64,000 nt of DNA from an uncultured Gammaproteobacteria bacterium. GTDB lineage: Bacteria; Patescibacteriota; Microgenomatia; UBA8517. A model generated the notes under the pieces. It had not been told where the DNA came from, made no database searches, and saw only the letters and a list, made by a program, of their open reading frames with translations. The stretch covers positions 385,488 through 449,487 of the forward strand of contig OZ246419.1 of assembly GCA_965231135.1 (NCBI GenBank). Reading direction: 5' to 3'. The position numbers were made by a program, and so were the translations under genes. Position 1 is the first letter of the stretch. The number at the start of each line of letters is the position of its first letter. Below, piece by piece: positions 1 to 35,095 of the stretch.

Positions 1-990
1 AGAAATCTGTATTTTTTAACAATTGGTTCTTCGATATTAATTTCAATTTGTATTTACTTTGTTTATTTATATAACACAAAGGTTGCTTTTTTAATTTCAT
101 TTTTATTTTTGGTTTTAAACATTTTTTATTTAAATAAAAACATAAGAAATGTGACAATGGATGGTGTATTGAGGAAAAATATATTGGATACGATTAAAAA
201 GGACTACCCGATTCTTCCTGAAAAAACAATTGTTTTTACGCAATCAGATAGTTCGTTTTATGGATTGCCTGAAAACACGAAAATTATGCCATTTCAATCA
301 GGTTTTGGACAAACTCTTTTAGTTTGGTATCAAGAAGAAGAAAATTTTCCGAAGGAGTTTTTTGAAAATAATTTTTTATGGAATATTGATTCAGAAGGTT
401 ATATGGAAAGTAACGGGAAAGGTTTTGGTTACTTTAGAAATTTTGGAGATATGATGAATTATATTAGTACAAGTAATCTTGATAAAAATAATGTAATTGC
501 TTTTGATTTTAATTCATCAAATGATGTCTTGACCGATATCACGCAGGAAATGAGAGGGAGAATAGAAGGTTTTGAGGCAAAGAAAAGAATTTTAAATCCA
601 AATCAAATAAAAATTTTTTCTTCGAGTAATAAAGATGGACTGAATAAAATACTTGATAGAAATGAAAAAACTTTTTGGGATTCAAAATTACCATATTCAA
701 ATTATCAATATTTACTTCTCTCTTTTAATAAGCCACATGCTGTTGCTCGTCTTACTATTGATTCGTATAATAACGTGAATCAGCTTAATGTTGGTTATAG
801 AATTGAAATCTCTAACGATAATAAAAATTGGCAAGAGGTTTTCGAAAATAGAAGCGATGGAAGCGAGAATGGTAAAGTGGATATTTATTTCAAGCCAATT
901 AGTGCAAAATATATTAAAATTGAACAAATAGGAAATGATAACTATACGGATTGGGTAATTAATGAATTGACTGTTTATGAGAAATATTAA
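1..990 (+). CDS. 5'-partial CDS; membrane-anchored protein with a C-terminal F5/8 type C (discoidin) domain
   Basis: Frame 1 is open from nt 1 with no stop before 109, so the gene begins upstream of the window. N-terminal hydrophobic helices (ILISICIYFVYLY, AFLISFLFLVLNIFYL). C-terminal ~120 aa match the discoidin pattern (TFWDSKLP...VGYRIEIS.D..NW..V.....G......YFKPISAKYIKIEQIGNDNYTDWVINELTVYE). Confidence 0.6.
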   Translation, partial: RNLYFLTIGSSILISICIYFVYLYNTKVAFLISFLFLVLNIFYLNKNIRNVTMDGVLRKNILDTIKKDYPILPEKTIVFTQSDSSFYGLPENTKIMPFQSGFGQTLLVWYQEEENFPKEFFENNFLWNIDSEGYMESNGKGFGYFRNFGDMMNYISTSNLDKNNVIAFDFNSSNDVLTDITQEMRGRIEGFEAKKRILNPNQIKIFSSSNKDGLNKILDRNEKTFWDSKLPYSNYQYLLLSFNKPHAVARLTIDSYNNVNQLNVGYRIEISNDNKNWQEVFENRSDGSENGKVDIYFKPISAKYIKIEQIGNDNYTDWVINELTVYEKY

Positions 991-4304: not shown

Positions 4305-6170
4305 AGTAATTATTGTTGTAGTTGTAATCGCTAGACCAAAGATGAAAGATGTTGGTTTGTAAACAAAATTGACAAATTTTGTGTTCTTGTTTATTGATAC
4401 TTCTCGTGTTTTGCTTAAAGTTTCATTGATTTTTAAACTTCTATTGCCGTTTGCAAAAGCGTACCAATCTTGATTGTAAACTTCAGAAAGAATTAGGGAA
4501 TTGCTTTTGTAATTTGACGTGTTTACTTGGATAAAATTTGGAGTGTAAATGTTTATTGGATAATTAGAGCGGGGAAGATTGATTTTATTTTTATAAACTA
4601 AATATTGGCCAAATATTTTTATTAACTGCAGATTTTTGTCTGTTAAAAGATGGTTTGAAATGATATATTTTATATTGTATTGTGATAGTTCTGGTGAGTA
4701 AGGTTGCAAGTTTTCGTAATCGAAAATTTCAAACGGGGGAATTGATAAGGTGTATCGCATATTAAAGTAGCTTTGAGAGAGCTGTTCACTCTCGTCGTAA
4801 TAATTTATTTGTTGAAGTGTACCGTAGCCATCGGCGAGTTGTAGGTGATAGTTTGCGGCTTCTTTTTGGGATAAACATCTATTTAGACAAAACACACGAA
4901 ACATGCTTTTGTCACTGCTTAAAAATTCATAAAGTTCTCTCGGAGCCGCTGTGGTGTCTGTTTGAATTGGATGAATTATTTTTGTCCACGAAGTCAGAAG
5001 TGACTCGATAATTGCAAGGAAAATAATTATATAAATTAAGAATTTTATTTTTTTAAATTTTAGTAAAGATTGAATTCCCAGACCTGCTAAAAAAAGCGCT
5101 ATGAAAACTATTAAAAACCAGAAACGAGTCGAGACTCGAAAGAGTATGTACCAGTTTTCTCTAATTAGCAGATTGTATATTGGCGAGGCATTGTTTAAAG
5201 AAATTAAAATTATTATTAGGGATATTAGTCCAACTAAAGTTTTATTTTTAGTATTTAAATTCAGAAAGCCTACGAATGAAAGAAAACTAACAAAAAAACC
5301 TATGCCAATAATTTTTTCAGTATCCAAGTTTTGAATAAAGTTACCGCCGAATAATATTGGTGAAAATGCGGCTTTTATGAATTCGGCTTTAGAAAGCCAT
5401 TTAGGATATACATCGGGGTGAATTAATAATAAGTTTCTTGTGGTTTGGTTTTGCCACGAGAGCTGAGGTAATAGAGCAATTGCAACAAAGCCAAAGGAAA
5501 AGATACCGACCAGTGAGAAATAAATAATTTTTTTTACGATATTTTTTTTGCCTTGAGAAATAAGGAAAAGAAATAAAAATCCTGAAGAAATTACGGCAAT
5601 TATGAAAATGAGAAGGTGCGTGTAGAAAATTAGAGCTAAGAACACACTTAATAAAAAAATATTTTTAAAAGTTTGTTTTCTTGATAAAAGTATTGTAAAT
5701 AAAAAAACAAACGGTAACCAACTCCAAGAAGCTATTAGTCCGTAATGACCTGCTTCTATATAGCCTGAAAGTTTTGGAGAGAAGACGTATAAAATAGATA
5801 ATATAATTGAAATCTTTTTTGAAAACTTAAAGCCCAATAATGATAGTAAATACATTCCAATTCCTGAAAAGAAAATATGAATGAAGACGGAAACCATGAA
5901 ACCTGCGTCTATATTTCGAAAAAATAAAAAAATGATATTTGGTAAGTAAAAAATCGGTGCTTGGGGATCGGGAAGAAGTGGTGTTCCTGAAAAAAATAAA
6001 TTATTCCAAAAAGGTAGTTGGTGGTATTTTATTAAAGTTTCTTTAGTGAAATAAAACATTGGATAGAAAAAATTAGTAAGATCGTTACCTCGATTTAAGA
6101 GAAGGTTTGAGTTTAACAGAATCGGAATATAGAAAACGAGACTTGTGAGAAGTAAAATAAGAATAAACAT
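4245..6170 (-). CDS. 641-aa polytopic membrane protein, GT-C-like (YfhO-like)
   Basis: N-terminal multi-TM bundle, then a soluble domain, then a C-terminal TM (GLAITTTTIITSFFIFAV). Same architecture as 977..3949 and 8552..11143. Confidence 0.5.
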   Translation of the reverse strand: MFILILLLTSLVFYIPILLNSNLLLNRGNDLTNFFYPMFYFTKETLIKYHQLPFWNNLFFSGTPLLPDPQAPIFYLPNIIFLFFRNIDAGFMVSVFIHIFFSGIGMYLLSLLGFKFSKKISIILSILYVFSPKLSGYIEAGHYGLIASWSWLPFVFLFTILLSRKQTFKNIFLLSVFLALIFYTHLLIFIIAVISSGFLFLFLISQGKKNIVKKIIYFSLVGIFSFGFVAIALLPQLSWQNQTTRNLLLIHPDVYPKWLSKAEFIKAAFSPILFGGNFIQNLDTEKIIGIGFFVSFLSFVGFLNLNTKNKTLVGLISLIIILISLNNASPIYNLLIRENWYILFRVSTRFWFLIVFIALFLAGLGIQSLLKFKKIKFLIYIIIFLAIIESLLTSWTKIIHPIQTDTTAAPRELYEFLSSDKSMFRVFCLNRCLSQKEAANYHLQLADGYGTLQQINYYDESEQLSQSYFNMRYTLSIPPFEIFDYENLQPYSPELSQYNIKYIISNHLLTDKNLQLIKIFGQYLVYKNKINLPRSNYPINIYTPNFIQVNTSNYKSNSLILSEVYNQDWYAFANGNRSLKINETLSKTREVSINKNTKFVNFVYKPTSFIFGLAITTTTIITSFFIFAVNTFKNKKKYSKH

Positions 6171-7653
6171 GAAATTTAAAAATTTTCGAATCAGTTTATC
6201 ATTTTTAATTATTATTGTTACAGCATTTGTTCTTCGTGTTTTTACTTTAAATAAGTTAATGGTTTTTACTCCAGATGAAGAATATGTACTTTACATTACA
6301 AAAACATTGACTAGTAATTTTCATATTATTTGGATTGGAGTTAGCGCTCTTGGATTTGATTTTTATATGGGGCCTGGGTTGAATTACTTTTTGGTGCCTT
6401 TCATGTGGCTTTTTAACGGAAACCCTTTTGTTTGGGGATTGATTGCTTGTCTTTTTGGAGTTGCTGCCTGTGTTCTAATTTATTTTTTCGCTAATAAACT
6501 TTTCGGTAGGAAGACAGCAATTATTGCATCTATTCTTTATGCAGTTTCTGCTCTTGTTGTTTATTACGATCAGCAGCCGTATCCAACTGCAGTTCCTTTT
6601 TTGTCGATGGCTATGATTATTTCTATTTACAACACGCGTCATTCGAAGTACTGGTGGATTGTCTTTGCTTTTTTGTATGGAATTGTTTTTCATATTCATT
6701 TGTCAATGGTGTTGGTTGTTTTTGTAGCCATTTATTGGGGAATAACACATAAAAAAACTTGGAATATTAAGATTTTAGTTTTATCTTTCCTGACATTTTT
6801 GACAGTTATTTCACCGCTAATTGTTTTTAATTACTTTCATAATTGGAGTGACTTCACTGCTCCGATTAGAGTTTTTCAAGCGCTCGGAAAAAATAAAAAT
6901 CAAACAAACATGTTTATTAGAATTCAGACTTTGACAAAAGCAACAAGCAGACTTTTTTATCTTGCGCCTGGGAAAACTAATACTGATGAAATTTTATATC
7001 CTTGTAACACATTGCCTAATAATAATTCTACAAAAGCTTCCTGGATTATTATATGCATTGCTTTGATTTTACTAATAATTTATTTTTTGAAGAAAGATTT
7101 CTGGAAAAATGAAGCAAAGAGGCTAATTTTTGTTTTTAGTTTAGCTTATTTAATACCTTTTATTTTTCTGTCTTCTGTAGGTTCTGTTGAATATTATTTA
7201 CTTGGTTTTTTTCCGATCTTTTTCATTATTGTTGCCTATACAATTGCAAACTTAAATAGGTTATTTCGATACGTATTTTATTTTTTGATTTTGTGTTTCG
7301 TAATATTTAATGTTTTTACAATTTTTAGCGCAAGTGGAGAGTTCGGTCTGGCTACAAAAAGAAAAATGATAAGTGATGTTATGCAAATTGTTGGCAACTC
7401 GAGTTTTAGTTTGCAAGAGATGGGCGGGCCATGTCAAGGAACAGCTGGGTGGGGGTATTTGTTCACAATTTACGGGAGGGCTCCGGAAGATAATATTGCA
7501 GATAAGCAATTTTCTTGGCTTTTGCCTGTTGGAAATCTAGAGAATACAAAATATAAAGTTGTCATTAACGAGTCGAGATTTGCTATCGATGAAACAGGTT
7601 ACAAAAACATAATTAGAGAAGGTGGTTTTACTGCTTATATTTTCAAAAATTAA
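6145..7653 (+). CDS. GT-C membrane glycosyltransferase, ArnT/PMT (GT39/GT83)-like
   Basis: About 12 TM helices. The N-terminal region (FVLRVF....LMVFTPDEEYVLYITKTL) and an early periplasmic loop are typical of 4-amino-arabinose / dolichyl-phosphate-mannose transferase-like proteins. An alternative start ATG lies at 6169. Confidence 0.5.
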   Translation: MRSKIRINMKFKNFRISLSFLIIIVTAFVLRVFTLNKLMVFTPDEEYVLYITKTLTSNFHIIWIGVSALGFDFYMGPGLNYFLVPFMWLFNGNPFVWGLIACLFGVAACVLIYFFANKLFGRKTAIIASILYAVSALVVYYDQQPYPTAVPFLSMAMIISIYNTRHSKYWWIVFAFLYGIVFHIHLSMVLVVFVAIYWGITHKKTWNIKILVLSFLTFLTVISPLIVFNYFHNWSDFTAPIRVFQALGKNKNQTNMFIRIQTLTKATSRLFYLAPGKTNTDEILYPCNTLPNNNSTKASWIIICIALILLIIYFLKKDFWKNEAKRLIFVFSLAYLIPFIFLSSVGSVEYYLLGFFPIFFIIVAYTIANLNRLFRYVFYFLILCFVIFNVFTIFSASGEFGLATKRKMISDVMQIVGNSSFSLQEMGGPCQGTAGWGYLFTIYGRAPEDNIADKQFSWLLPVGNLENTKYKVVINESRFAIDETGYKNIIREGGFTAYIFKN

Positions 7654-8380
7654 ATTTTTGTTTAATAAAAAAATAGAATATATAAATTTGTATAACTATT
7701 GCCCAATTAATTGTTTGCCACCATCTACCAACGATTGCGGATTTTCTCGTACTCTTTGTATAACTTATGGGAATTTCGACGAACTTCAAATTTTGTGTAA
7801 CTACATGAAGCGTCAGTTCGGTATTAAATAGAGCTGTTCCGTTATTACTCCATTTTGAAATGTTTTTTTTAAGTGCCTCTTTCTTAAACAATTTATAGGT
7901 GCAGCCAACATCTGTCAGTGCAACGCTGTTGAATAATATTTCGATTGTCTTTGCTTCTAAAACATTGGCGAATTTTCTTATGATACCCATCCCCGTTCCG
8001 GAAAGAGAGCCGATTTGGCTAGTTCTGGTGCCAAGTACAACATCGAAATCTCGTGAGTAGACTAAAAATTTTTCTATGTCGCTTGCTTTCAGGGAACCAT
8101 CTGCTTCGCATATAACGATATAGTCACATGAAGCTTTTTTAATTGCAGTTTTATATGCGTAACCATATCCTTGTTTTTTTTCGTAATATATTTTTACGAT
8201 TCCTTTTTTGAAAGGTGTCGATTTTGTAATTTCTTTGTAGGTGCCTTTTTCTGCATTATTGTCTATTACTATTATTTCATCTACAAAGTTAGTTTTATAA
8301 AAATTATCGAGTACTGATTTAATTGTTTTTTTCTCTCTGTATGTTGCGATTGCAACTGACACAGTTTTACCCTCGTACAT
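7643..8380 (-). CDS. glycosyltransferase family 2, polyprenyl-phosphate sugar synthase (DPM1/ArnC-like)
   Basis: The N-terminus VSVAIATYREKKTI...IVIDNNAEKGT and a DXD-like motif CEADGS match the short GT2 'dolichol-P-mannose synthase-like' fold. Its 3' end overlaps the 3' end of 6145..7653 by 11 nt (convergent). Confidence 0.7.
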   Translation of the reverse strand: MYEGKTVSVAIATYREKKTIKSVLDNFYKTNFVDEIIVIDNNAEKGTYKEITKSTPFKKGIVKIYYEKKQGYGYAYKTAIKKASCDYIVICEADGSLKASDIEKFLVYSRDFDVVLGTRTSQIGSLSGTGMGIIRKFANVLEAKTIEILFNSVALTDVGCTYKLFKKEALKKNISKWSNNGTALFNTELTLHVVTQNLKFVEIPISYTKSTRKSAIVGRWWQTINWAIVIQIYIFYFFIKQKFNF

Positions 8381-8551: not shown

Positions 8552-11143
8552 ATGTGGAAAAAAATTAGTTTTATTATTTTATTAATTGGCTTAGGAACTG
8601 TTTTTCATAAGTTTTTTTTGAATGGCCATCTTGTTTTTGGTGATGCCCCTTACTTTTATAACGAAGGATTTAAAGAGCTTCTTTACTTTCCGAGTGCTTG
8701 GACTTCAAGGGGTAATGCGTTAGGAAATGTGAATTTGTTTTTATGGATTTATCCTTTAATGTTTATTTATGGAGCTCTTGGTCATTTTTTACATTTTTCA
8801 AATGATGTAATACTTCGTGTTTTGTTTTATTTTCCATCTTTATTGTTTGGAGGATTGGGGATTTATCTTTTAGTCAGAAAATATTTTAAATTTTCTAATT
8901 TAGTTTGTTTTTACACTATTTTGTTTTATTTAATTAATACATATTTTTTACTTTTGATTGATGGTGGTCAAGTCGGAGTGGTTTTGGCATATGGACTTTT
9001 CCCGTTAGTACTTTTTTTAATTTTAAGTAGTAGTTTTTTGGTAGGTCTTGTTGCAGCTTTTATTTTGACAATTGTTGATTTTAGGATTGCCGCGATAGTC
9101 TTTCTGACAGCGTTGCTGCTTCAAGAGAAAAAACTTGCAAAGATTGGAAAATTGATTTTAATGGCTCTTTGTTTACTCGGACTCTCAATGTACTGGATAA
9201 TTCCAGCTTTGAGATTGTCTGCTGAAGTTAGTACGGATGTTGCATCGCTTCAAACGACTTCTTTTCTTAATACTTTATTTTTAACTTCTTCCAATTGGCC
9301 TACAAATCAATTTGGGCAAACAATTCCCGTTTATTTTTATTTTGTAATTATACCGATTCTTGTTTTTTTGCCGGTTTTTTTAATAAAAAACAAAAAGATA
9401 ATTTTTCTTACTTTGTGTTTGATGGTTTTTGCTTTTCTTGCAAAAGGAGAGACTCCACCATTTAGTTTTTTTTATAGTTTTTTTGTAAATAATAAGTTTG
9501 GAAGTGTTTTTCGTGATTCTACAAAATTTTTTATTCCACTTCTGTTATTTGGATCCATTTTAATTGGTGTAGCTATCGAAGAGATATCTAGAAGAGTTAA
9601 TAAATATTCGTTTCTTGTAAAAGCTTTGGGTTTCATAATTATTTTATTTTTGGTATGGCAGGTTGTAGTAGGGAAAATGAATGGTAGTTTGGGAAGAAAC
9701 ATAGATATTGGCGATTATGAAAAAATTTATAACACATTAGTTGCTCAAAATGATTTTTTTAGGGATGCTTGGTTTAATGAAATTTCACCGTTTTCGTTTT
9801 CGAATAACAATAATCAGGCTTTGTCTGCCTCTGATCTAGTGAACTTTAGACCATTTGCATCTATGAATAATGGTACTGGTGATAAATTTAATTTTATTAA
9901 TAATCCGCTTTATCTCGATTTTTTTAGGCTTTTTGGAATTAAATATTTGGTTTTCAATGGCAATCCTAGATCTCGAAATTTAAGTGAAACAGAACAACAA
10001 GATTGGGATAGATTAAATAATTTGATTGCCGCCGATAAACGCTTAAAGAAATTAGATATTGGGACAAACATACCTGTTTACGAGAATGGTTCTACTCTTC
10101 CAAATAAGTTTTTGGTTAATCAAAGTTTTGTAGTAATTGGCGGGGATGATATTTATCAGAAACTTAGTTTAATTGATAAGGATTTTTCTGTTTCTAATGA
10201 AGGTTTCTTATTCCCTGAAGATGGTAAATTTGCAGTGAGCAGCTTAGAGAATGTCGCATCAAGTGCTGCTGTTATTATATTTAACAACAAGACAGTTGAA
10301 GATTTAAAAATGAGTTTCCTTTCAGATGATTTTATTCCGTCATCATCTTCTTATTATTCAACCTGGGCAATAAGAAAGGCTAGCGATTACTTAATGTGGA
10401 AATATGAATTTTTAGAAAACAATATTGACACCCATGAGTTTGACTATAATTTAGGTGTTGCATTTTCAACAGTAAAAAATGAAAAACTGAATTTTAGTCT
10501 TAAAGTACCTGCTGATGGAAGTTATTATTTGGCGATTAGGACGATGTCGGGAGTAGATTCTTCAGATTTGAAATTAACTTTTAACCACGATGAGGAACTG
10601 GTACATAGAAAAGAAAGTGGTGATTTCGAATGGCAAGAATATGGACCGATTCCACTTCGTACTGGGAGTTATTCACTGAATTTGCAAAATGAAGGCGGGT
10701 TTCAAGCAGTTAATACGATAGCCTTAATTTCCCAAGCTGAAATGGATAATGCAAGCAATTTAAGCGATAAATTATTGGGCAATTTCCAAAACTATAATAT
10801 TGATAAAAGCAAAGATGTTTCCAGTTTGCAAAAAATATTAAATTTGGAGAAATCACAAAATTACAGTGGGGAGATTACTAAACCAGGTTGGATAATTTTT
10901 ACTGATACATTTAATAATAATTGGTATTTACAAAATGGTAACGATGAACAAAGTGTACCAATGTATTCTGCTGTCAATGGTTTTTATGTTGATCAGAATT
11001 TTAAAGATTTTAAAATAACTTTTAGAGGTGATGAATATTTAAGATGGGGAATTTATTTTTCGATTTTAACTTTACTTTTAATTATTATAGTTTATTTGTT
11101 TATAATTTATATGCATGAGAGAAAAAATACTCGCGATAACTAG
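8552..11143 (+). CDS. about 864-aa polytopic membrane protein, GT-C-like (YfhO-like)
   Basis: N-terminal multi-TM domain, large soluble domain, C-terminal TM (GIYFSILTLLLIIIVYLFIIY). The track starts it at TTG 8528; the ATG at 8552 (MWKKISF) is preferred. Confidence 0.55.
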   Translation: MWKKISFIILLIGLGTVFHKFFLNGHLVFGDAPYFYNEGFKELLYFPSAWTSRGNALGNVNLFLWIYPLMFIYGALGHFLHFSNDVILRVLFYFPSLLFGGLGIYLLVRKYFKFSNLVCFYTILFYLINTYFLLLIDGGQVGVVLAYGLFPLVLFLILSSSFLVGLVAAFILTIVDFRIAAIVFLTALLLQEKKLAKIGKLILMALCLLGLSMYWIIPALRLSAEVSTDVASLQTTSFLNTLFLTSSNWPTNQFGQTIPVYFYFVIIPILVFLPVFLIKNKKIIFLTLCLMVFAFLAKGETPPFSFFYSFFVNNKFGSVFRDSTKFFIPLLLFGSILIGVAIEEISRRVNKYSFLVKALGFIIILFLVWQVVVGKMNGSLGRNIDIGDYEKIYNTLVAQNDFFRDAWFNEISPFSFSNNNNQALSASDLVNFRPFASMNNGTGDKFNFINNPLYLDFFRLFGIKYLVFNGNPRSRNLSETEQQDWDRLNNLIAADKRLKKLDIGTNIPVYENGSTLPNKFLVNQSFVVIGGDDIYQKLSLIDKDFSVSNEGFLFPEDGKFAVSSLENVASSAAVIIFNNKTVEDLKMSFLSDDFIPSSSSYYSTWAIRKASDYLMWKYEFLENNIDTHEFDYNLGVAFSTVKNEKLNFSLKVPADGSYYLAIRTMSGVDSSDLKLTFNHDEELVHRKESGDFEWQEYGPIPLRTGSYSLNLQNEGGFQAVNTIALISQAEMDNASNLSDKLLGNFQNYNIDKSKDVSSLQKILNLEKSQNYSGEITKPGWIIFTDTFNNNWYLQNGNDEQSVPMYSAVNGFYVDQNFKDFKITFRGDEYLRWGIYFSILTLLLIIIVYLFIIYMHERKNTRDN

Positions 11144-12383
11144 ATCGGCAACTTTTCGTCATACAGGAATTGTTACGACAGCAACTGTAATAAATGGAAT
11201 TTTGGGTTTTGTATTTTTTTGGTGGGTAGCTCGCGTTTTTGACGCGAAAACATTGGGTGAATTTAGCGTTGCTGTAACTGCTTCTGGACTTGTTACTGAT
11301 ATTGCAGTAGTGGGTACGGAAACTGGAACTGTAAATTTTGTAGGAAAATATATAAAAAAAGAAAAGGAAAAGGCTTTAAGATTTTTAAAGTTGGCGTTTG
11401 AGACAAAAATTGTTGTTTGTGTATTAGTAGTTGTTATTGGCTGGTTCTTGGTTCCTTTTTTTGCAATTTATTTTTTTAAAAACAGTTCGTTAATTTTACC
11501 TCTTAGACTGTCACTTTTTATTTCAGTAGGACTTTTATTATTCGGGTTTGCAACTAGCAGTTTGCAGGCGATTCAGAAATTTAATATCTGGGGTTTAGTT
11601 AACATCTCCTCTAATTTTACAAGACTCGTTTTTATGGCTATATTGTTAGCTACCGGTAGCTTTGCATTACAGTCGGGTTTAATTATTCAAACAGTTGCTC
11701 CGATAATATTTTTTATATCTTCGCTTTTGTTTTTGCCCAGGTTTTTGGGAGTTAAAAATGAAAATAAAGTTTTGCAAGAATTTTTCCATTATAATAAATG
11801 GGTTGCGTTATTTACTATTCTTGCTGCGGTAGCAAGTAGACTAGATATTTTTTTTGTTACTAGAATTTTAGGGCTTACTGCTGTTGGTATTTATTCAGTT
11901 GCAGTCACTTTATCTAGTATTATTCCTCAGCTTGTGGGTGCAATAGGAACAGTTGTTGCTCCAAAACTTGCAGGGCAAAACAATAAAACACAAGCGATTG
12001 AATATCTTAAAAAATTGCAGGTTTTTGTTGGTGTACTTTCTTTGTTGGGAATAGTTTCAGGGATTTTTGTTGGATATTTTTTTATAAGACATTTCTATAA
12101 ACCAGAATATTTTGCAAGTTTTGTTCCCTTTATAGTTTTACTTGTTGCTCAAGTAGTTTTCCTTTTTTCTATTCCAGTGCACATGACCACAATTTATTAT
12201 TTTTCATATCCAAAACTTTTTGTAACAATAAGTCTTGTGAATGTAATTGTTGTTACCATTTTTTGTTTAGTTTTAATACCAATTTTTGGTATAGCTGGAG
12301 CAGCGTTAGCTATCTTATTTGGGAGTATTTCCAATTTTATTATTCCTGCATTTTGGGTTTTTGGAAAATTTAAAAATGATTAG
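11115..12383 (+). CDS. oligosaccharide flippase (MOP superfamily, Wzx-like polysaccharide biosynthesis protein)
   Basis: 422 aa with about 12-14 TM helices and a polysaccharide-biosynthesis-protein-like N-terminus. Overlaps the upstream gene by 29 nt. Confidence 0.55.
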   Translation: MREKILAITRSATFRHTGIVTTATVINGILGFVFFWWVARVFDAKTLGEFSVAVTASGLVTDIAVVGTETGTVNFVGKYIKKEKEKALRFLKLAFETKIVVCVLVVVIGWFLVPFFAIYFFKNSSLILPLRLSLFISVGLLLFGFATSSLQAIQKFNIWGLVNISSNFTRLVFMAILLATGSFALQSGLIIQTVAPIIFFISSLLFLPRFLGVKNENKVLQEFFHYNKWVALFTILAAVASRLDIFFVTRILGLTAVGIYSVAVTLSSIIPQLVGAIGTVVAPKLAGQNNKTQAIEYLKKLQVFVGVLSLLGIVSGIFVGYFFIRHFYKPEYFASFVPFIVLLVAQVVFLFSIPVHMTTIYYFSYPKLFVTISLVNVIVVTIFCLVLIPIFGIAGAALAILFGSISNFIIPAFWVFGKFKND

Positions 12384-13179
12384 TATAAATACATTGGTTA
12401 AAAATGAAGAAAATTTTTTATGGTATAGTGTTGGTTCTGTTGTAAATTACGTTGATGAAATTTTGCTTTGGGACACAGGGAGTACCGATCAAACGCTAAA
12501 AATTATTGAGGAAATTATAAAAAGATATCCTCATAAAATTCATTTTAAGCAGATTGGTAGAGTGGACCCGGAAGAATATAGTGGTGTGCGTCAACAAATG
12601 CTAGACAACAGTATTGGAGATTGGGTTTTTATATTAGATGGGGATGAGGTTTGGTGGGATGAGAATATTAAAAAGATAAGCAGTTTTATTAATAGTAATA
12701 AAGTTTATGAGTCTGTGGTTGTAAAAACTTACAATTTGATTGGTGACATGTTTCATTTTCAGGAAGAGAATGCTGGAATGTATCGGTTTGGAAAAAGACG
12801 AGGGCATTTTGCACTTCGATTTATGAATAAAAATATTCCAGGACTGCACGTTGGAGATGTTTATGGTAAAGAAGGCTTTTTTGATGGTGATGGTTTACCG
12901 ATACAAAATCGTGATGAGTCTAAAATAATGTTTTTTGATTTAGCGTACGTTCACGCTACACATCTTACAAGATCAACTAAAGATTTTGAAGTAATGCAGC
13001 GAGATAAAAAAAAGAAATATGAAAGAGGAATAGAATTTGCGGGGGATTTTTATTTTCCAGAGGTTTTTTTTAGAGAAAAACCTGAAATAGTTCCAAATAA
13101 TTGGGAAAATACTCAATTGGGTTTCAAAGTAAAAGCGTATCTACAGACACCGCTTAAAAAAATTAAAAGACGAATATGA
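12376..13179 (+). CDS. glycosyltransferase family 2-like
   Basis: ISINTLVKNEENFL...DTGSTDQT...FILDGDEVW motifs of a GT-A fold. The start overlaps the flippase stop (ATGATTAG). Confidence 0.6.
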   Translation: MISINTLVKNEENFLWYSVGSVVNYVDEILLWDTGSTDQTLKIIEEIIKRYPHKIHFKQIGRVDPEEYSGVRQQMLDNSIGDWVFILDGDEVWWDENIKKISSFINSNKVYESVVVKTYNLIGDMFHFQEENAGMYRFGKRRGHFALRFMNKNIPGLHVGDVYGKEGFFDGDGLPIQNRDESKIMFFDLAYVHATHLTRSTKDFEVMQRDKKKKYERGIEFAGDFYFPEVFFREKPEIVPNNWENTQLGFKVKAYLQTPLKKIKRRI

Positions 13180-23283: not shown

Positions 23284-24598
23284 AATTGATACATTGTTAA
23301 AATACGGGATCGCTGCAATTTTGATTGCAGTCCCGCTTTATCCAAAATTTCCTTTTATAAATGTCCCTGGAATTTATGTTTCAATTCGCATTGAAGACTT
23401 CCTGATTTTAGTTGTTACTGTGCTTTGGTTTTTAAAAACCTTACCCAATCTTTTTTCTTTATACAAAAATCCAGTTGTAAGAGCAATTATTTTATTTTTG
23501 GCTACAGGATTTTTGGCAACACTTCTTGGCGTTGTATTTTTAAACACCGCAACTGCTTTGGTTGGATTTTTAGAATGGGCGAGAAGAGTTGAATACTTGC
23601 TTGGCTTTTTTATTGCATTTACAACTTTAAAATCAATAAAAGATTTGGAATTTTATATGAAATGTATTGGAATAGTTTTGGCAATTGTTTTTGTTGTTGG
23701 CCTTGCTCAAAAATATTTTAATTTCCCAGTTATTACTACACAAAACAGTGAATATTCAAAAGGAATTGCTTTAAGATATGTTCCTGGTACACAACTTGTT
23801 TCAACTTTTGCAGGGCACTATGACTTGGCAAGTTATATTTTAATTACAAGCCCGATACTTCTTGGAATATTTTTTGTAGTTAAGAAAAATTGGCAGAAGA
23901 TAATTGTGTTTTTGCTTATTGCAACTTCTTTTTGGCTCATGATAAATGCGGCAAGCAGAATTACAGCTGTTGCTTATGTACTTGCGATGTCGATCACTTT
24001 AGTGGTGCTTCGAAAAACTAAATATATATTAATAATAGTTGTTGCGACAATTGTTTTTGCATTTGCCACAAGCAATTTGTTTGATAGGTATTTAAATATT
24101 TTTAACGCAATAAAAGATAGACTTAGTGATTTAATAATTAGACCTGTTTATGCACAAGGAGAAGTTTTAAGCGCGCAAGCGCCAGTACAGGACTTATCAA
24201 CCTCTATAAGGCTAAATGTTGAATGGCCTCGTGCTATTCGAGCTTTTTTGAAAGATCCGCTTTTGGGAACAGGATATGCATCTGCAACTCTTGCAACTGA
24301 TAATGATTATTTGCGTGCGCTTGCGGAAACAGGAGCACTTGGGGCAATAACTTTTTTTGTTGTTTTTTTTAGAATTACAAAAGATTTAATTATGAAATCC
24401 TGGCCAAAGGGAATTCTAAGCAAAAAGCAAATCAACTTCCGAACTGCATATTTGGCTGGAGTAATTGGTATAATTCCTGCAGTTTTACTAAACGCAGTTT
24501 TTATTGATATTTTTGAAGCGAGTAAATTTGCGATTCCGTTTTGGTTTTTGATTGGATTTGCGATGGCAATTTTATACAATGCGAAAAACTTTGAATAA
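23258..24598 (+). CDS. O-antigen ligase / polymerase family membrane protein (Wzy/WaaL-like)
   Basis: About 10 TM helices with a late periplasmic loop and a following ETGALGAITFFVVFF segment, as in O-antigen ligase family proteins. Confidence 0.5.
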   Translation: MQKLLLKFKIDTLLKYGIAAILIAVPLYPKFPFINVPGIYVSIRIEDFLILVVTVLWFLKTLPNLFSLYKNPVVRAIILFLATGFLATLLGVVFLNTATALVGFLEWARRVEYLLGFFIAFTTLKSIKDLEFYMKCIGIVLAIVFVVGLAQKYFNFPVITTQNSEYSKGIALRYVPGTQLVSTFAGHYDLASYILITSPILLGIFFVVKKNWQKIIVFLLIATSFWLMINAASRITAVAYVLAMSITLVVLRKTKYILIIVVATIVFAFATSNLFDRYLNIFNAIKDRLSDLIIRPVYAQGEVLSAQAPVQDLSTSIRLNVEWPRAIRAFLKDPLLGTGYASATLATDNDYLRALAETGALGAITFFVVFFRITKDLIMKSWPKGILSKKQINFRTAYLAGVIGIIPAVLLNAVFIDIFEASKFAIPFWFLIGFAMAILYNAKNFE

Positions 24599-26054
24599 AT
24601 TATTAAAAATTGGCGATTCGAGAATAATTGAAGTAGCGTGTTTACTTCTTATTCTTATTGGAGCATTTGGAGTAAGACTTTATAAAATAGACAATCCTCT
24701 TGATGATTGGCACTCATGGAGACAAGCTGACACGGTTTCTGTTTCTCAGGTTTATGTAGATCAGGGGATAAATTTATTAAAACCCAGATATTATGATATT
24801 TCATCGACACAAACAGGTTATTTTAATCCACAAGGATTAAGGTTTGTAGAATTTCCAATTTATAACTTAATAAATGTTGTTTTATTTGAAACACTGCATC
24901 ACTTTTCTTTGGAAGTTTGGGCGAGACTTATTTCCGTAGTTAGCGCGGTTGGATCCAGTTTTTTTATTTATTTAATCGGAAAAAGATTTTTGGGAAAACT
25001 GGGAGGACTTGCATCGGCATTTTTTTATGCATTTATTCCATATAATATTTATTTCACTCGCGTAATTTTGCCCGAGCCGATGGCGGTTTTTGTAACACTT
25101 GCTTCACTCTGGTTTTTCATGATCTTCTTAGATCACAAGAAAAATTATTTATTTTTCTTATTGTTGTCTGCGATATTTTTAGCAATTGGAATGCTTTTGA
25201 AACCGTTTGTTGCATTTTACTTTCCGGTTTATTTGTATTTATTAATTAAAAAACATGGACTGAAAGTTTTTTGGACAAATGTTTGGATTTATATTTATCT
25301 GGCATTAGCGTTAGTTCCATTTTTTCTTTGGAGAGCCTGGATGGATAGCGGTACCAATTTTATAGGAATTCCCTTTTTCGTCTGGCTATTAAACGGAAAT
25401 GGAATTCGTTTTAGACCTGCATGGTTCCGGTGGATTTTTGGAACAAGATTAGGAGATTTAATTTTGGGAGTTTGGGGATTGCCGCTTTTCGCCTTCGGCG
25501 TCCTGAAGCGCAAAAATTTGCCAATAATTTTGATGGCGACTGGAATGCTTCTTTATGTTGCTGTTGTAGCCGATGGGAATGTGCAGCATGATTATTACCA
25601 AACGCAAACTATTCCAGCAATTTGTTTGATGCTTGCTTCAGGAATTGTGTTTTTGTTTGAACAGAAATTTAACAAATTAGTTGTTGCTGGATTTGTTGGA
25701 TTTTGTACTTTGATGATGCTAGGGATGGGATGGTTTGGAATTTCTGGAGATTATCAAATTAACCATTATGAAATTATTGTTGCAGGGATGGAAGCAAATA
25801 AAATTTTGCCCAAAAATGCAAAAGTAATTGCTCCATATAACGGAGACACGACTTTTCTTTATCAGACAAAAAGATTTGGTTGGCCAGTAGTTGACGATGA
25901 TATTAAAAATATGATTAAAGACGGGGCAGACTATTATATAAGCGTAAATTACGATAATGATACAAATAATTTGTTGAAGCAATATAAAGCAATTGAGCAA
26001 AATCCAACTTTTGTGATTATTGATTTACATCAACTAATACAGAGAAATAAATAA
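24552..26054 (+). CDS. GT-C membrane glycosyltransferase, ArnT/PMT (GT39)-like
   Basis: A 500-aa multi-TM protein. Early loop motif DDWHSWRQADT. The start is uncertain (24552 or 24579). Confidence 0.5.
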   Translation: MDLRWQFYTMRKTLNKLLKIGDSRIIEVACLLLILIGAFGVRLYKIDNPLDDWHSWRQADTVSVSQVYVDQGINLLKPRYYDISSTQTGYFNPQGLRFVEFPIYNLINVVLFETLHHFSLEVWARLISVVSAVGSSFFIYLIGKRFLGKLGGLASAFFYAFIPYNIYFTRVILPEPMAVFVTLASLWFFMIFLDHKKNYLFFLLLSAIFLAIGMLLKPFVAFYFPVYLYLLIKKHGLKVFWTNVWIYIYLALALVPFFLWRAWMDSGTNFIGIPFFVWLLNGNGIRFRPAWFRWIFGTRLGDLILGVWGLPLFAFGVLKRKNLPIILMATGMLLYVAVVADGNVQHDYYQTQTIPAICLMLASGIVFLFEQKFNKLVVAGFVGFCTLMMLGMGWFGISGDYQINHYEIIVAGMEANKILPKNAKVIAPYNGDTTFLYQTKRFGWPVVDDDIKNMIKDGADYYISVNYDNDTNNLLKQYKAIEQNPTFVIIDLHQLIQRNK

Positions 26055-26064
26055 TTGTTATTTT

Positions 26065-31275: not shown

Positions 31276-31286
31276 TATCTTAAGTT

Positions 31287-32369
31287 ATGAAGGTTGTTAT
31301 TTTTTGTGGAGGCTATGGAACACGAATGTGGCCTGTTTCACGTAAAACTTCTCCAAAACAATTTTTTCCTTTAATTGGCGGAAAATCTTTTTATCAGATA
31401 ACAGTTGAACGATTTAAAAAAAGATTTAAAGCAGAAGATATTTTTGTTTCTACTGAGAGATCGTATGTTGATTTCGCTCGGGAGCAAGCTCCTGAAATCC
31501 CATTGGAAAATATTATTGGTGAGCCGGAAAGAAGGGATAATTTGGGAGCGATTGGGCTTGCGACCGCAATTATTCATAAAAAATTTCCCAATGAGGTTGT
31601 ATTTTTATCCTGGTGTGATCACGTAATTACAAAGGAAGATTTGTTTTTGGATGCAGTTATAGCTGCTGGAGAATATGCAACTGAAACTGGGAAACCTGTA
31701 TCGATCGATCAAGAACCGACTTTTCCAAGTACAAATAACGGATGGGTGAAATATGGAGCGACAATTGATGAATATAAAAAATATAGAATTGCAGAAATTG
31801 AAAAACATATTGAAAAACCAGATCTTGCTACAGCTAAGAAATTTTTTACCGGCAAAAATTATTTAATTCATACTGGATATGAAGTTTGGAGAACTGATAC
31901 ATTACTTGGTTATTACGAAAAGTATCAACCTGAAGTATATAAGGGTTTAATGAAAATAGTTGATAGTATGGATACAAAAATGTGGGAGACGGAGCTTTAC
32001 AGGGAATATCATAAATTTGAAAAAGTCTCGATTGATTACGGACTTTTTGAAAAAATACCAAGCAATCAAAGAGTCACAATTCCACTTGATTTTGGATGGC
32101 TCGACTCTGGAACATGGCAACTTTTTTATGAATCGTTTAGATCTGTCGAGAAACCAAATGTTATTGAAGGAGCCGATACAGAATTTATAGATTCAAACGA
32201 TAATTTAATAATTGGGAAGCCTGGAAAAGAAATTGCAGTAATTGGCTTATCAAATGTTGCAGTTATTGATACTGATGATGGGCTTTTGGTTGCCGACCTT
32301 AGCGCAACGCCTAAAGTTAAAGAATTGTTTACAAAACTGGAAAAAGAAAAACCTCAATACGTGGAATAA
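31287..32369 (+). CDS. sugar-1-phosphate nucleotidyltransferase (mannose-1-phosphate guanylyltransferase-like)
   Basis: N-terminus MKVVIFCGGYGTRMWP (the G-x-G-T-R signature of NDP-sugar pyrophosphorylases). Confidence 0.8.
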   Translation: MKVVIFCGGYGTRMWPVSRKTSPKQFFPLIGGKSFYQITVERFKKRFKAEDIFVSTERSYVDFAREQAPEIPLENIIGEPERRDNLGAIGLATAIIHKKFPNEVVFLSWCDHVITKEDLFLDAVIAAGEYATETGKPVSIDQEPTFPSTNNGWVKYGATIDEYKKYRIAEIEKHIEKPDLATAKKFFTGKNYLIHTGYEVWRTDTLLGYYEKYQPEVYKGLMKIVDSMDTKMWETELYREYHKFEKVSIDYGLFEKIPSNQRVTIPLDFGWLDSGTWQLFYESFRSVEKPNVIEGADTEFIDSNDNLIIGKPGKEIAVIGLSNVAVIDTDDGLLVADLSATPKVKELFTKLEKEKPQYVE

Positions 32370-32375
32370 ATTTAA

Positions 32376-33011: not shown

Positions 33012-33046
33012 TACAATTAATTTGTATTTATAAGCAAAGCTTGTAA

Positions 33047-35095
33047 TTGATTACAATTATGGACGAAAAAAAAATAGATATTCCAGAAATAAAATTGCCA
33101 GAAACTCCAGATACAGGTTTCAGTGAAGTTTCAGCTGCCGTACCTCAGAATATAAAAAACGAGCAGGGTTTTGTGGAGATTCCAAATTTGAAATTTAAAA
33201 ATAACAAAAAAAAGAAAATAATCATTAGAGTTGCTGCTGTTGTTTTGGCAATTTTTGTTTTTTTGATTCTTGCAACGCTGATTCCAGGAATTACAGTTTA
33301 TAAAAAAGCTAAAGTTTTGGTTGCTGATTCACAAACCATGAAAGCAGATTTCTCAAAGCAGGATATAAATTTGGTGCAGACAGATGTTGGAAAATTTAAA
33401 ACTGACTTAACTTCGTTTCAATCTTCATATAACTTATTGTCCTGGATGAAGTTTATGCCATTTTTGAGCGGATATTGGAATGATGGAAACCATGCAATAA
33501 ACGGGGCGCAGCATGCTATTAATGCTGGAGAAATTGGAATTGAAACTGCAAAGCCTTATGCAGATATTATTGGTTTTGCTCCAGGGGGAACAAAAGCGAC
33601 AAATGCTGAAGAAAACGCAAACGACAGGATACAATTTTTAGTTAGCACGATAAAAGATATTTTGCCAAAAGTTGACCAGGTTTCAAAAGAGGCAGATGCA
33701 GCAAAGAGCGAATTTGATCAAATAGATCCAAATCGTTATCCAACTGCTTTTGCTGGAAAACCTATTCGGGAAGATTTAACAAAAGGAATTGATTTAATTG
33801 ATGAAGCTGCAGGGCTTGTTGCCAATAGCAAACCATTATTGCAATCAGCTCCTTATATGATGGGAATTGATTCACCGCGAACTTATTTAGTTTTATTCCA
33901 AAACGATAAAGAGCTTCGACCAACTGGCGGATTTATAACTGGATATTCAATCATGACAGTTGATAAAGGAAAAGTAAGCAATGTTACAAGTAATGATATT
34001 TATAATTTGGATAATATATATACACCAACTATTAAAGCGCCACAACCAATCATTCAATTTATAAAAGGTCCTTATGTAATAAATCCAAATCTTCGTCTTC
34101 GTGATATGAATTTTGATCCTGATTTTAAAGATTCGATGACGACTTTTGTCGCTGAAGCGCAAAAAGCCGGAATTCCGAAAATCGATGGGGTGATTGCTGT
34201 TGATACACAAGTTTTGGTTAACATCTTGAATGTTATTGGGACTGTTGGAGTTCCTGGATATGGGAATTTTGGCACACAGATTAATCCTAAATGTAATTGC
34301 CCTGATGTTGTTTATCAACTTGAAGATTTTGCCGATGTCGAAGGAAGCGTTGTCTGGGACCAAAACGATCCGACAAAAATTATTTATGCTCCAGCCAACT
34401 ATTATAATCGAAAAGCAATTATTGGGCCGTTGATGAATTCTGTTCTTAAAAATTCGCTGGGGCAGCCAAAAGAAAAAATCCCCGCACTTTTCCAGGCGGC
34501 ATGGAATTCTCTGACGCAAAAAGATGTTTTGTTTTATATGCTTGATGCAAATGCACAACAAGGCGTTGAATCGTTTAATATTGCAGGACGCGTTAGTGAT
34601 ACTCCTGCCAATGATGATTACCTTTTTGTGGATGATGCAAATTTAGGAGGACGTAAATCTAATTTGTATGTCACAAATGAAGTTGAGAGCGATGCTTCAA
34701 TTGGGCTTGATGGCAGCATTACAAAAACTGTAACTTTGACTTATAAAAATTCTCAAGGCTATGATGGATGGCTCAATAGCGTTTTACCTTCATGGCTTCG
34801 TATTTATGTACCAAAAGGAAGTACATTAATTTCGATTGATGGTCTTGATAATAAACAGGCGCCATATGAAGATTTGGGAAAAACCGTTTTTGCCGGAAGC
34901 TATTCATTAAGGCCGCTTGGAGTTGTAACTATTACAGTAAAATACAAACTACCATTTAAAGCTGCAAATGGGCAATATAATTTGTTTGTACAAAAGCAGT
35001 CCGGTGTCGAGTCTATAATGGAAACTGTAAAAGTCGGGAGACAAGAACAAGATACTTTCTTGAAATCTGACCAGGAGTTTAAATTTAAGATATAA
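33047..35095 (+). CDS. membrane-anchored exported protein, DUF4012-like
   Basis: 682 aa. A single N-terminal TM (VAAVVLAIFVFLILATL) is followed by a large extracytoplasmic domain. Its position directly after the priming transferase recalls DUF4012 proteins; the family assignment is from memory and not verified. Confidence 0.4.
   Translation: MITIMDEKKIDIPEIKLPETPDTGFSEVSAAVPQNIKNEQGFVEIPNLKFKNNKKKKIIIRVAAVVLAIFVFLILATLIPGITVYKKAKVLVADSQTMKADFSKQDINLVQTDVGKFKTDLTSFQSSYNLLSWMKFMPFLSGYWNDGNHAINGAQHAINAGEIGIETAKPYADIIGFAPGGTKATNAEENANDRIQFLVSTIKDILPKVDQVSKEADAAKSEFDQIDPNRYPTAFAGKPIREDLTKGIDLIDEAAGLVANSKPLLQSAPYMMGIDSPRTYLVLFQNDKELRPTGGFITGYSIMTVDKGKVSNVTSNDIYNLDNIYTPTIKAPQPIIQFIKGPYVINPNLRLRDMNFDPDFKDSMTTFVAEAQKAGIPKIDGVIAVDTQVLVNILNVIGTVGVPGYGNFGTQINPKCNCPDVVYQLEDFADVEGSVVWDQNDPTKIIYAPANYYNRKAIIGPLMNSVLKNSLGQPKEKIPALFQAAWNSLTQKDVLFYMLDANAQQGVESFNIAGRVSDTPANDDYLFVDDANLGGRKSNLYVTNEVESDASIGLDGSITKTVTLTYKNSQGYDGWLNSVLPSWLRIYVPKGSTLISIDGLDNKQAPYEDLGKTVFAGSYSLRPLGVVTITVKYKLPFKAANGQYNLFVQKQSGVESIMETVKVGRQEQDTFLKSDQEFKFKI

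Follow-up and report, generated by a model that had tools for sequence, protein, structure and literature searches.

Positions 1 to 35,095 of the DNA analysed here belong to a glycan locus that encodes at least eight large membrane glycosyltransferases of the GT-C type and whose gene order recurs across the class Microgenomatia of the Patescibacteria. The analysed stretch, referred to below as the window, comprises 64,000 nucleotides of contig OZ246419.1 (assembly GCA_965231135.1); when the window is read together with the upstream part of L001, a longer contig from this genome, the locus extends over at least 41 kb, or approximately 5% of an 810-kb contig. We estimate the chances at somewhat better than even that the product of the locus is a single large heteropolysaccharide of the secondary cell-wall type, made by a monoderm cell via a hybrid route combining synthesis inside the cell with extension outside of it. 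Patescibacteria, or the candidate phyla radiation (CPR), account for a large and mostly uncultured share of bacterial diversity and have genomes of approximately 1 Mb; to our knowledge, their envelope chemistry is essentially unknown.

An earlier note on this DNA, made from the sequence alone, had described a very large surface-glycan locus of a CPR organism with its genes lying nearly all on one strand, and this description was borne out. Open reading frames (ORFs) of the window were listed and scanned against Pfam and NCBIfam, and the Pfam inventory agrees with that of the note in its six GT4 and five GT2 glycosyltransferases (starts in Table 1), two methyltransferases, acetyltransferase, Wzx flippase, Wzy_C protein, PglC-type primer and mannose-1-phosphate guanylyltransferase-like (ManC-like) enzyme. 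The source is a Patescibacteria metagenome-assembled genome with relatives among the Woesebacteria, Blackburnbacteria and Daviesbacteria. The proposal of a wall polysaccharide starts from what can be read directly, namely the family or fold of the proteins, an acidic motif following the first transmembrane (TM) helix, and the class-wide gene order.

GT-C identity of the large membrane proteins

Seven large polytopic proteins are encoded within the window (A990, B641, C502, D871, E449, F447 and G500), and an eighth, H690, enters it across the 5' boundary. By hydropathy all eight have 9-11 predicted TM helices. In A990, B641 and D871, approximately 10 N-terminal TM helices are followed by a large soluble domain and then by a single C-terminal TM helix; in C502, E449, F447 and G500, a soluble tail of approximately 100 residues comes after 9-10 TM helices. 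These sizes and topologies match those given in the earlier note for the seven proteins, and the helix maps of the structure models of D871 and E449 agree with hydropathy. Just after TM1, each of the eight proteins carries an acidic residue or pair. Specifically, the site is invariant in alignments of 45-52 sequences for A990 (D36), B641 (N29-D30) and D871 (D39), E29 and D46 are invariant in the family alignment of E449, and pairs were read in the single sequences of F447 (D24-E25), C502 (D44-E45), G500 (D51-D52) and H690 (D34-E35). The essential D41 of AftD occupies a place equivalent to that of the post-TM1 Asp (10.1101/2019.12.22.885152).

The gathering score of a Pfam family of the GT-C clan is passed by C502, F447 and G500 themselves (PMT_2). 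A990 (21.4 bits, cutoff 26) and E449 (17.3 bits, cutoff 25) fall below the respective cutoffs and B641, D871 and H690 have no match, and homologues of A990, B641 and E449 pass or carry GT-C-clan matches. Models were made with AlphaFold2 for D871 and E449 only, and the other six proteins are linked to the superfamily by profile homology or Pfam. Taken together, Pfam, the fold of the models and profile comparison identify all seven window proteins and H690 as GT-C enzymes, which brings the count to at least eight. The division of the large polytopic proteins into GT-C enzymes of two kinds therefore stands, and the competing view that they are transporters lacking any GT-C match was checked and not borne out; the earlier count of seven was correct for those seven but short, since it did not include H690.

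Pairwise similarity among the GT-C proteins is nearly absent: phmmer recognises only C502 with F447 (E 5e-10) and F447 with G500 (E 0.006), so that the term paralogs, as used in the earlier note, is a loose one. This near-absence rules out an origin by recent tandem duplication, and the GT-C copies are, on their sequences, ancient and deeply diverged.

Within the group with large outer domains, A990 matches GT-C_AftD (PF11847) at an E value of 6.8e-5, and the cutoff of that family is passed by three of the seven distant A990 relatives scanned. Compared with the D871 family, the A990 family profile aligns over nearly its full length, including most of the soluble region (100%, E 5e-41), and the B641 family profile matches as well (98.2%, E 6e-14). 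D871 itself has no Pfam match, and its homologues are nearly all named hypothetical. Its AlphaFold2 model (pLDDT 90.7) finds its best solved match in AftD (6w98; E 5.8e-10, 868 aligned columns, identity approximately 12%); the model also matches STT3, and part of the soluble region matches CBM6 and CBM35 carbohydrate-binding modules (CBMs). Sequence searches of the PDB with A990, B641 and D871 returned no match. Some homologues of B641 carry weak matches to YfhO (PF09586), PTPS_related (PF10131) or DUF6541 (PF20176), and none of the three proteins themselves matches YfhO in Pfam at E <= 0.01 or in NCBIfam. AftD-like thus fits A990, B641 and D871 better than YfhO-like: for the three proteins of 641-990 residues with a C-terminal TM anchor, the size and topology given in the earlier note stand, and the YfhO label is imprecise.

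In the public annotation and gene call, B641 begins at Met38 and has 604 residues, which drops TM1, the invariant N29-D30 and P37 (45 homologues). Given the conservation of these features, the 641-residue ORF is the better gene model.

The earlier proposal of three or four ArnT/PMT-like proteins of 447-502 residues is confirmed by the PMT_2 scores of C502, F447 and G500, and by E449, the model of which matches ArnT, PglB and STT3. Across all proteins of the locus, matches of this kind are to PMT_2 (PF13231) and the TMEM260-like family, with none to PMT (PF02366) or PMT_4TMC (PF16192); F447 additionally shows a weak match to the mannosyltransferase MT1671 (NCBIfam), far below cutoff. Taken alone, E449 has only the sub-threshold match to GT87 mentioned above, and comparison of its profile with the single F447 sequence by hhalign gave no significant match. 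Its assignment as a GT-C derives from the Pfam matches of its homologues and from its fold: most of the 398 detected homologues carry PMT_2 or GT87 (PF09594), some being named GT39 or DUF2029, and the AlphaFold2 model (from 42 homologues; pLDDT 91.5) has as its top 36 solved matches exclusively GT-C or GT-C-fold membrane proteins, with PglB, STT3, ArnT, DPY19, ALG3/9/12, ALG6, PMT, EmbB and PimE among its matches. H690, of which the window ORF at 109-990 represents the last 293 residues, combines nine TM helices with a soluble domain, carries the motif FFQQDEW after TM1, and ends in a C-terminal F5/8 type C (discoidin) domain (F5_F8_type_C, 54 bits). Its family profile returned only noise against the PDB and matches the E449 family over the catalytic N-terminal region (95.3%, E 2e-8), and it is on the strength of this match that H690 is regarded as the eighth GT-C.

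Conservation across Microgenomatia

Related loci were collected by searching the species genomes of GTDB for members of the D871 family. No GTDB representative corresponds to the source genome (the best match has 45% identity), and many of the 63 loci recovered are cut by contig ends. All 63 are found in Microgenomatia, the named lineages being Woesebacteria, Blackburnbacteria, Daviesbacteria and Shapirobacteria. The recurring order of the 5' part is (GT2 with TM helices, methyltransferase)-H690-A990-4-TM protein-B641 (minus strand)-D871-Wzx-GT2-methyltransferase-E449-GT4-GT2 (309 residues)-F447-GT4-GT4, followed by (acetyltransferase-2-TM protein-GT2-Wzy-G500); the frequency of individual homologues is given in Table 1. 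Among 29 loci with full 10-kb flanks (22 kb), a median of four GT-C homologues was recognised per locus (range 3-6), and a median of six (range 3-7) when unassigned polytopic proteins of at least 380 residues were added. The observation that so many GT-Cs in one locus are unusual is therefore valid in comparison with model bacteria, but within the class three to six recognisable GT-Cs per 22 kb are standard.

In the close relative L065 the order from A990 to G500 is kept, with a gene for an APH-type kinase-like protein (L065 9045-10004) inserted between the methyltransferase and the E449 homologue. Two further relatives, L067 and L070, carry the 3' module in the order Wzy-G500-GT4-GT2-GT4-GT4-GT4-ManC-phosphoglycosyl transferase-DUF4012-RecO. 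In all five of five related loci DUF4012 follows ManC and the phosphoglycosyl transferase as the last gene of the locus. Unlike a strain-variable capsule or O-antigen island, the cluster is conserved at the level of the class. The recurrence of gene order in 63 Microgenomatia genomes, together with a conserved neighbourhood comprising the 3' module, RecO and a LytR-CpsA-Psr (LCP) ligase, argues for a core function, and the cluster probably builds a core wall polymer.

The cluster occurs in many GTDB records that bear the title 'uncultured Gammaproteobacteria bacterium', and in one called 'Woesearchaeota archaeon'; its gene content, of the Microgenomatia type, indicates that these titles are wrong.

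Supply of lipid-linked sugars and proposed route of assembly

Sugars for GT-C enzymes would be provided by synthases that load them onto polyprenyl phosphate. As the candidate DPM1-like synthase the earlier note had named the GT2 at 7643-8380, which is plausible in this role but only weakly DPM1-like and present in few related loci; its hydrophobic part is limited to a short tail, with no clear TM helix, and its top NCBIfam matches, AglJ and a dolichyl-phosphate hexose transferase, are far below cutoffs. At least as good, and the best conserved of the candidates by sequence comparison, is the GT2 at 16251-17180, which lies directly upstream of F447 and has TM helices at residues 224-242 and 271-289, a build of the GtrB/ArnC type; its similarities to ArnC, AglJ, PpgS, DPMS and GtrB are likewise weak and far below cutoffs. 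GacI works together with a separate small membrane protein, GacJ (PMC8035078), and by analogy the GT2 at 7643-8380 could function with such a partner. The prediction that the presence of GT2 enzymes alongside the GT-Cs implies extracytoplasmic transfer from lipid-phosphate sugars is supported. Of the possible sugars we infer that mannose has the best support, given the ManC-like enzyme and the weak GT87 and MT1671 matches. An RmlD-GT2 fusion encoded upstream of the window may produce a 6-deoxyhexose in lipid-linked form, for instance rhamnose, and hints at the involvement of that sugar; weak matches to the fusion are found near the cluster in 11 related loci, and are mostly short, covering one of the two domains.

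In the assembly route that we propose, the small PglC-type transferase would prime polyprenyl phosphate inside the cell, six GT4 and several GT2 enzymes would extend the lipid-linked unit, and the two methyltransferases and the acetyltransferase would modify it, with GDP-mannose supplied by the ManC-like enzyme. Wzx would then flip the unit, and the Wzy_C protein would polymerise or transfer it. In parallel, membrane-linked GT2 enzymes (the candidates being those at 16251-17180 and 7643-8380, plus two encoded upstream of the window) would load single sugars onto polyprenyl phosphate. Outside the cell, at least eight GT-Cs would draw on these lipid-phosphate sugars to lengthen the polymer or add branches, the glycan acceptor would be held by the CBM or discoidin modules of the AftD-like enzymes and H690, and the LCP ligase would fix the product to peptidoglycan. 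In its logic such a route is akin to the assembly of mycobacterial arabinogalactan joined with the multi-component transmembrane glycosylation of Gram-positive bacteria. The priming, flipping and polymerising components all score above Pfam cutoffs (Bac_transf 207, Polysacc_synt 56 and Wzy_C 45 bits).

The CBMs of AftD bind its glycan acceptor (10.1101/2019.12.22.885152). A glycan acceptor is favoured here by the CBM6/35-like module in the D871 model, by the discoidin domain of H690, and by the alignment of A990 and D871 through their soluble regions. The earlier note had left the choice between transfer onto a protein and onto a wall polymer; these sugar-binding modules and the conserved LCP ligase nearby favour the wall polysaccharide, and the protein half of the claim is not supported.

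Weighing of alternative explanations

Several points weigh against the proposal of a single wall polysaccharide. The donors, acceptor, sugars, linkage, order of steps and attachment are what we infer. No GT2 reaches the cutoff of a curated polyprenyl-phosphate sugar synthase family (NCBIfam), and PDB sequence matches of three of the GT2s cover only the generic N-terminal 100 residues, so that these searches could not separate lipid-phosphate sugar synthases from ordinary GT2 enzymes. No match to a chain-length regulator (Wzz/PCP) was found in the window ORFs scanned, nor was a GtrA-family flippase found by Pfam among the locus ORFs and 16 members of the 4-TM protein family. In this genome the LCP gene lies 16 kb from the locus, L065 lacks Wzx at its usual place after D871, and the locus could serve more than one polymer. 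In a composite of the latter kind, which we consider improbable, the class-wide GT-C core (window start to approximately 26 kb) and the module of the phosphoglycosyl transferase and GT4 enzymes (26.6-35 kb) would serve separate polymers. The related loci, fetched around the D871 homologue, span the 5' part only, the genes for the primer and ManC are located at the extreme 3' end, and in L065 a HicB-like gene follows the G500 homologue; the missing Wzx of L065 would fit as well. Against such a division, a primer gene is lacking from the 5' part, and Wzy and G500 are immediately followed by the 3' module in L067 and L070 as well as here, with DUF4012 proteins that are 53-69% identical. This retained order indicates that the linkage between the 5' and 3' parts is kept in different species.

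Two further explanations keep the locus whole and change its product, and each seems to us about as improbable as the composite. In protein O-glycosylation, conceivable for the small PMT_2 enzymes and the Wzy_C protein, PMT_2-type GT-Cs would move mannose from polyprenyl-phosphate mannose to Ser/Thr of an S-layer protein, a pilin or another surface protein, and the Wzy_C protein would act as a PglL-type oligosaccharyltransferase that hands the lipid-linked oligosaccharide to proteins. The Wzy_C domain is common to O-oligosaccharyltransferases, PMT_2 is matched by C502, F447 and G500 and the TMEM260-like family by F447, a GDP-mannose enzyme is present in the locus, the E449 model fits PglB and STT3 as well as ArnT, and AglJ, the top match of the GT2 at 7643-8380 (far below cutoff), belongs to S-layer glycosylation. 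PMT_2 is, however, a generic ArnT-like family, and matches to PMT or PMT_4TMC are lacking; no S-layer or pilin family was detected by Pfam among the locus genes, the CBM6/35-like and discoidin modules of the large GT-Cs indicate glycan acceptors, and the LCP ligase and a NAGPA-domain gene are conserved beside the locus. The O-mannosylation of an S-layer or pilin suggested in the earlier note is not supported, lacking both a GT39 PMT signature and a candidate S-layer or pilin in the locus. In a lipoglycan of the lipomannan or lipoarabinomannan (LAM) or glycosylated lipoteichoic acid type, by comparison, GT4 enzymes inside the cell would build a mannosylated glycolipid primer from GDP-mannose, which, once flipped, GT-Cs would extend outside the cell from polyprenyl-phosphate mannose; the product would stay lipid-anchored, with no link to peptidoglycan. 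GT4, here with six genes, is the family of PimA and PimB, and the ManC-like enzyme and the weak matches of E449 to GT87 (the PimE family) and of F447 to MT1671 are in keeping with this idea. AftD-like GT-Cs moreover act on both LAM and arabinogalactan (10.1101/2019.12.22.885152). The GT87 and MT1671 matches are nonetheless far below cutoffs, the window showed no genes related to phosphatidylinositol, the phosphoglycosyl transferase, Wzx and Wzy_C indicate a polyprenyl-diphosphate-linked repeat unit, and the conserved LCP ligase nearby points away from a lipid-anchored product.

A bolder form of the wall-polysaccharide proposal is put forward only tentatively: an ancient, syntenic 'GT-C assembly line' of Microgenomatia, and perhaps of other CPR classes too, would use lipid-phosphate monosaccharides to make, for the most part outside the cell, the main wall glycopolymer, which might be essential, as an independent analogue of actinobacterial arabinogalactan in ultrasmall monoderm bacteria. 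The AftD-like enzymes, the 4-TM protein, the 2-TM protein and DUF4012 would then form new machinery, and hosts would meet the polymer as the cell surface.

Features of the locus and its neighbourhood

Table 1. Features of the glycan locus and adjoining genes. Positions refer to the window unless given for L001; the last column gives the number of related loci with a homologue. SAM, S-adenosylmethionine; aa, amino acids.
Feature	Position	Strand	Evidence	Related loci
Cut 370-aa membrane protein, may be a ninth GT-C	upstream of window (L001)			
RmlD-type reductase-GT2 fusion, 627 aa, 2-3 C-terminal TM helices	L001 1130-3013, ~3-5 kb upstream of window start		RmlD-type reductase 226 bits	
Methyltransferase	upstream of window (L001)			
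GT2, 334 aa, two C-terminal TM helices	upstream of window (L001)			
H690, candidate eighth GT-C, 690 aa	1..990 (gene start ~1082 bases before window; L001 4946-7018)	+		
A990, AftD-like GT-C, ~10 TM helices, outside domain of roughly 530 aa, C-terminal TM helix	977..3949	+	profile	32/63
Small 4-TM membrane protein, 124 aa	3930..4304	+	called gene, between A990 and B641	
B641, GT-C of YfhO/PTPS_related/AftD-like group, ~9 TM helices, soluble domain, C-terminal TM helix	4245..6170	-		34/63
C502, PMT_2-type GT-C	6145..7653	+	PMT_2 39.1 bits (cutoff 26.1)	5/63
GT2, 245 aa, candidate polyprenyl-phosphate sugar synthase	7643..8380	-	Glycos_transf_2 64.6 bits	8/63
D871, AftD-like GT-C, CBM6/35-like outside module, C-terminal TM helix	8528..11143	+	AlphaFold2 model	
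Wzx-type flippase	11115..12383	+	Polysacc_synt 56.4 bits, Polysacc_synt_3 47.2 bits	46/63, following D871 homologue
GT2, 286 aa	12319..13179	+	Glycos_transf_2 51 bits	50/63
SAM methyltransferase	13176..13877	+	Methyltransf_23 106.8 bits	51/63
E449, PMT_2/GT87-like GT-C	13877..15226	+	AlphaFold2 model, Pfam matches of homologues	44/63
GT4	15208..16254	+	Glycos_transf_1 105 bits	45/63
GT2, 309 aa, candidate polyprenyl-phosphate sugar synthase	16251..17180	+	Glycos_transf_2 128 bits	44/63
F447, PMT_2-type GT-C	17177..18520	+	PMT_2 46.7 bits, TMEM260-like 24.3 bits	37/63
SAM methyltransferase	18504..19127	+	Methyltransf_11 36.6 bits	
GT4	19127-20191	+	Glycos_transf_1 90.5 bits	34/63
GT4	20175-21293	+	Glycos_transf_1 120.5 bits	30/63
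Hexapeptide O-acetyltransferase, WcaF-like	21298..21894	+	Hexapep 48.8 bits; WcaF family 98 bits, below cutoff	
170-aa protein, TM helix at each end	21891..22403	+	no Pfam match	
GT2, 297 aa	22390..23283	+	Glycos_transf_2 57.7 bits	
Wzy_C-domain protein, polymerase or ligase, 11 TM helices	23258..24598	+	Wzy_C 44.9 bits (cutoff 31.7)	
G500, PMT_2-type GT-C	24552..26054	+	PMT_2 48 bits	
GT4	26646-27836	+	Pfam	
GT2	27796-28656	+	Pfam	
GT4	28646-29794	+	Pfam	
GT4	30223-31275	+	Pfam	
ManC-like enzyme	31287..32369	+	NTP_transferase 78 bits, ManC beta-helix	
Small monotopic phosphoglycosyl transferase, PglC-type primer, 211 aa	32376..33011	+	Bac_transf 206.6 bits	
DUF4012 protein, 682 aa, N-terminal anchor, mostly outside cell	33047..35095	+	DUF4012 86 bits	
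NAGPA (phosphodiester glycosidase) domain protein	36795-37559	-	conserved beside RecO in L070	
Type I restriction-modification system: hsdM, KilA-N-domain gene, hsdS, DUF4145 protein, hsdR	38496-47069			
LCP ligase, candidate for polymer attachment to peptidoglycan	51466-52524	-	LytR_cpsA_psr 102 bits	

The 5' side of the locus is cut by the window start, and additional locus genes were found in the 6 kb of upstream DNA read on L001 (window position equals L001 position minus 6028). Minus-strand ORFs within positions 1 to 35,095 are limited to 4245-6170, 7643-8380 and two doubtful ones, 26065-26592 (175 residues) and 29791-30294 (167 residues), which have no family match and no homologues in the related loci searched, and which are probably not genes. 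Without them, non-coding gaps of approximately 590 nt (26.05-26.65 kb) and 430 nt (29.8-30.2 kb) appear, which could provide room for internal promoters. The plus strand holds nearly all genes, and GC skew is positive in all 2-kb bins of window positions 1 to 64,000 (0.11-0.30), a bias reminiscent of the strong disparity between strands that a study of another Microgenomates genome reported (PMC7143001).

Among the remaining locus proteins, the 4-TM protein is found in 16 related loci, always between the A990 and B641 homologues. Its size and topology would fit a GtrA-type flippase, but none of the 16 members matches any Pfam family, and that assignment was rejected; a role as a flippase of another kind or as a GT2 partner of the GacJ type is possible. 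The 2-TM protein of 170 residues follows the acetyltransferase in L065, L034 and L013 as it does here. The ManC-like enzyme matches TIGR01479 (209 bits) over residues 3-355 and consists of the guanylyltransferase part without the PMI (isomerase) domain, and the PglC-type primer, which has one N-terminal hydrophobic helix, matches EPS_sugtrans and the WbaP C-terminal domain. Possible roles of the DUF4012 protein are chain-length control or export, or it may itself be a substrate.

Downstream of DUF4012 are RecO, the NAGPA-domain protein, which could act on phosphodiester-linked wall glycans, a DNA methylase and the type I restriction-modification system. After hsdR follow an unassigned ORF of 236 residues and a PD-(D/E)XK nuclease, with a second PD-(D/E)XK nuclease at 50632-51465; beyond the LCP gene the window contains prolyl-tRNA synthetase and the dcw cluster of peptidoglycan and division genes, and LCP and dcw give an envelope context that speaks for the wall-polymer proposal. 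In L070, DUF4012 and RecO are followed within a few genes by LCP, the genes between being NAGPA, the DNA methylase and three unassigned ORFs, with no restriction-modification block. As the restriction-modification genes are unmatched in L070, they constitute an insertion between the locus and the LCP gene, and positions 38496-47069 look like an inserted defence block.

Significance and comparison with known systems

Our literature search found no earlier description of this cluster and none linking Patescibacteria with GT-C, YfhO or ArnT proteins; a 2024 perspective on the Patescibacteria does not mention glycans, and one Microgenomates genome paper remarks only on 29 glycosyltransferase genes (PMC7143001). 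Since the locus occupies approximately 5% of a 0.8-Mb genome and its gene order is class-wide, it is a strong candidate for producing the main non-peptidoglycan wall polymer, which, if so, would be the surface that hosts and phages encounter and that is exposed to the environment. GT-C enzymes are poorly sampled, and structural and mechanistic studies of them should benefit from the many deeply diverged sequences of the cluster, among them compact AftD-like forms with sugar-binding modules.

Loci for Wzx/Wzy capsules, O-antigens and secondary cell-wall polysaccharides share with this one a phosphoglycosyl transferase primer, GT4 and GT2 enzymes, methyl and acetyl modification, Wzx and Wzy_C. 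Such loci are normally strain-variable, however, while this one is dominated by GT-Cs, has a class-wide order, and revealed no chain-length regulator. The GT39 enzymes (PMT, Rv1002c) resemble the proteins described here in their polytopic GT-C fold and DE-type post-TM1 motif, and a polyprenyl-phosphate-mannose donor is plausible via the ManC-like enzyme; they differ in that only the generic PMT_2 is matched here, without MIR domains and with no evident protein substrate in the locus.

Closer are the multi-component transmembrane glycosylation systems of Gram-positive bacteria (CsbB/GtcA/YfhO, GtlA/GtlB, GacI-J-K-L, CsdAB/CD/EF), in which a GT2, a flippase and a GT-C likewise serve a wall polymer. 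These systems use GT-Cs of both the PMT_2 and the YfhO type (PMC5836110, PMC7389260, PMC8035078), and a Wzx-type flippase and a small membrane partner are among their known variants (PMC8035078). In them, each GT-A enzyme is paired with one GT-C and the sugars added are single side-chain residues, whereas the present locus has at least eight GT-Cs for approximately four candidate GT-As, a ratio that suggests the building of a backbone or of branches; in addition, no GtrA-family protein was detected, and none of the three large proteins A990, B641 and D871 matches YfhO in Pfam directly. With about four candidate synthases set against at least eight GT-Cs, and with modules of the CBM type, its logic is nearer to the assembly of arabinogalactan and LAM.

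The mycobacterial and corynebacterial system for the latter polymers (AftA-D, EmbA-C, polyprenyl-phosphate sugar donors, ligation by Lcp1) likewise has several clustered GT-Cs and an LCP ligase, and the extension outside the cell of a lipid-linked primer made in the cytoplasm, as proposed here, would be a further likeness. Likenesses of the large members to AftD are the approximately 11 TM helices, CBM beta-sandwiches in an outside domain, a return into the membrane, and an essential Asp after TM1 (D41 in AftD; here D36, D30 and D39), but AftD returns with TM12-16 where the proteins of this locus have a single C-terminal TM helix, and identity is low. Differences extend to the sugars, which are here likely to be hexoses such as mannose, and to export, for which Wzx and Wzy_C stand in place of an ABC or other transporter; Pfam scans of the window genes turned up neither UbiA-type nor DprE-type (DprE1/2) families of the decaprenyl-phosphate-arabinose pathway. 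Mixed systems that glycosylate wall polymers inside and outside the cell are established for Gram-positive and for actinobacterial species (PMC5836110, PMC7389260, PMC8035078, 10.1101/2019.12.22.885152, PMC11127046), and the component families of the present locus are all known. What is new is the scale, with at least eight GT-Cs including three compact AftD-like enzymes, the class-wide synteny within reduced CPR genomes, the conserved 4-TM and 2-TM proteins that belong to no known family, and the presence of DUF4012 as the terminal gene.

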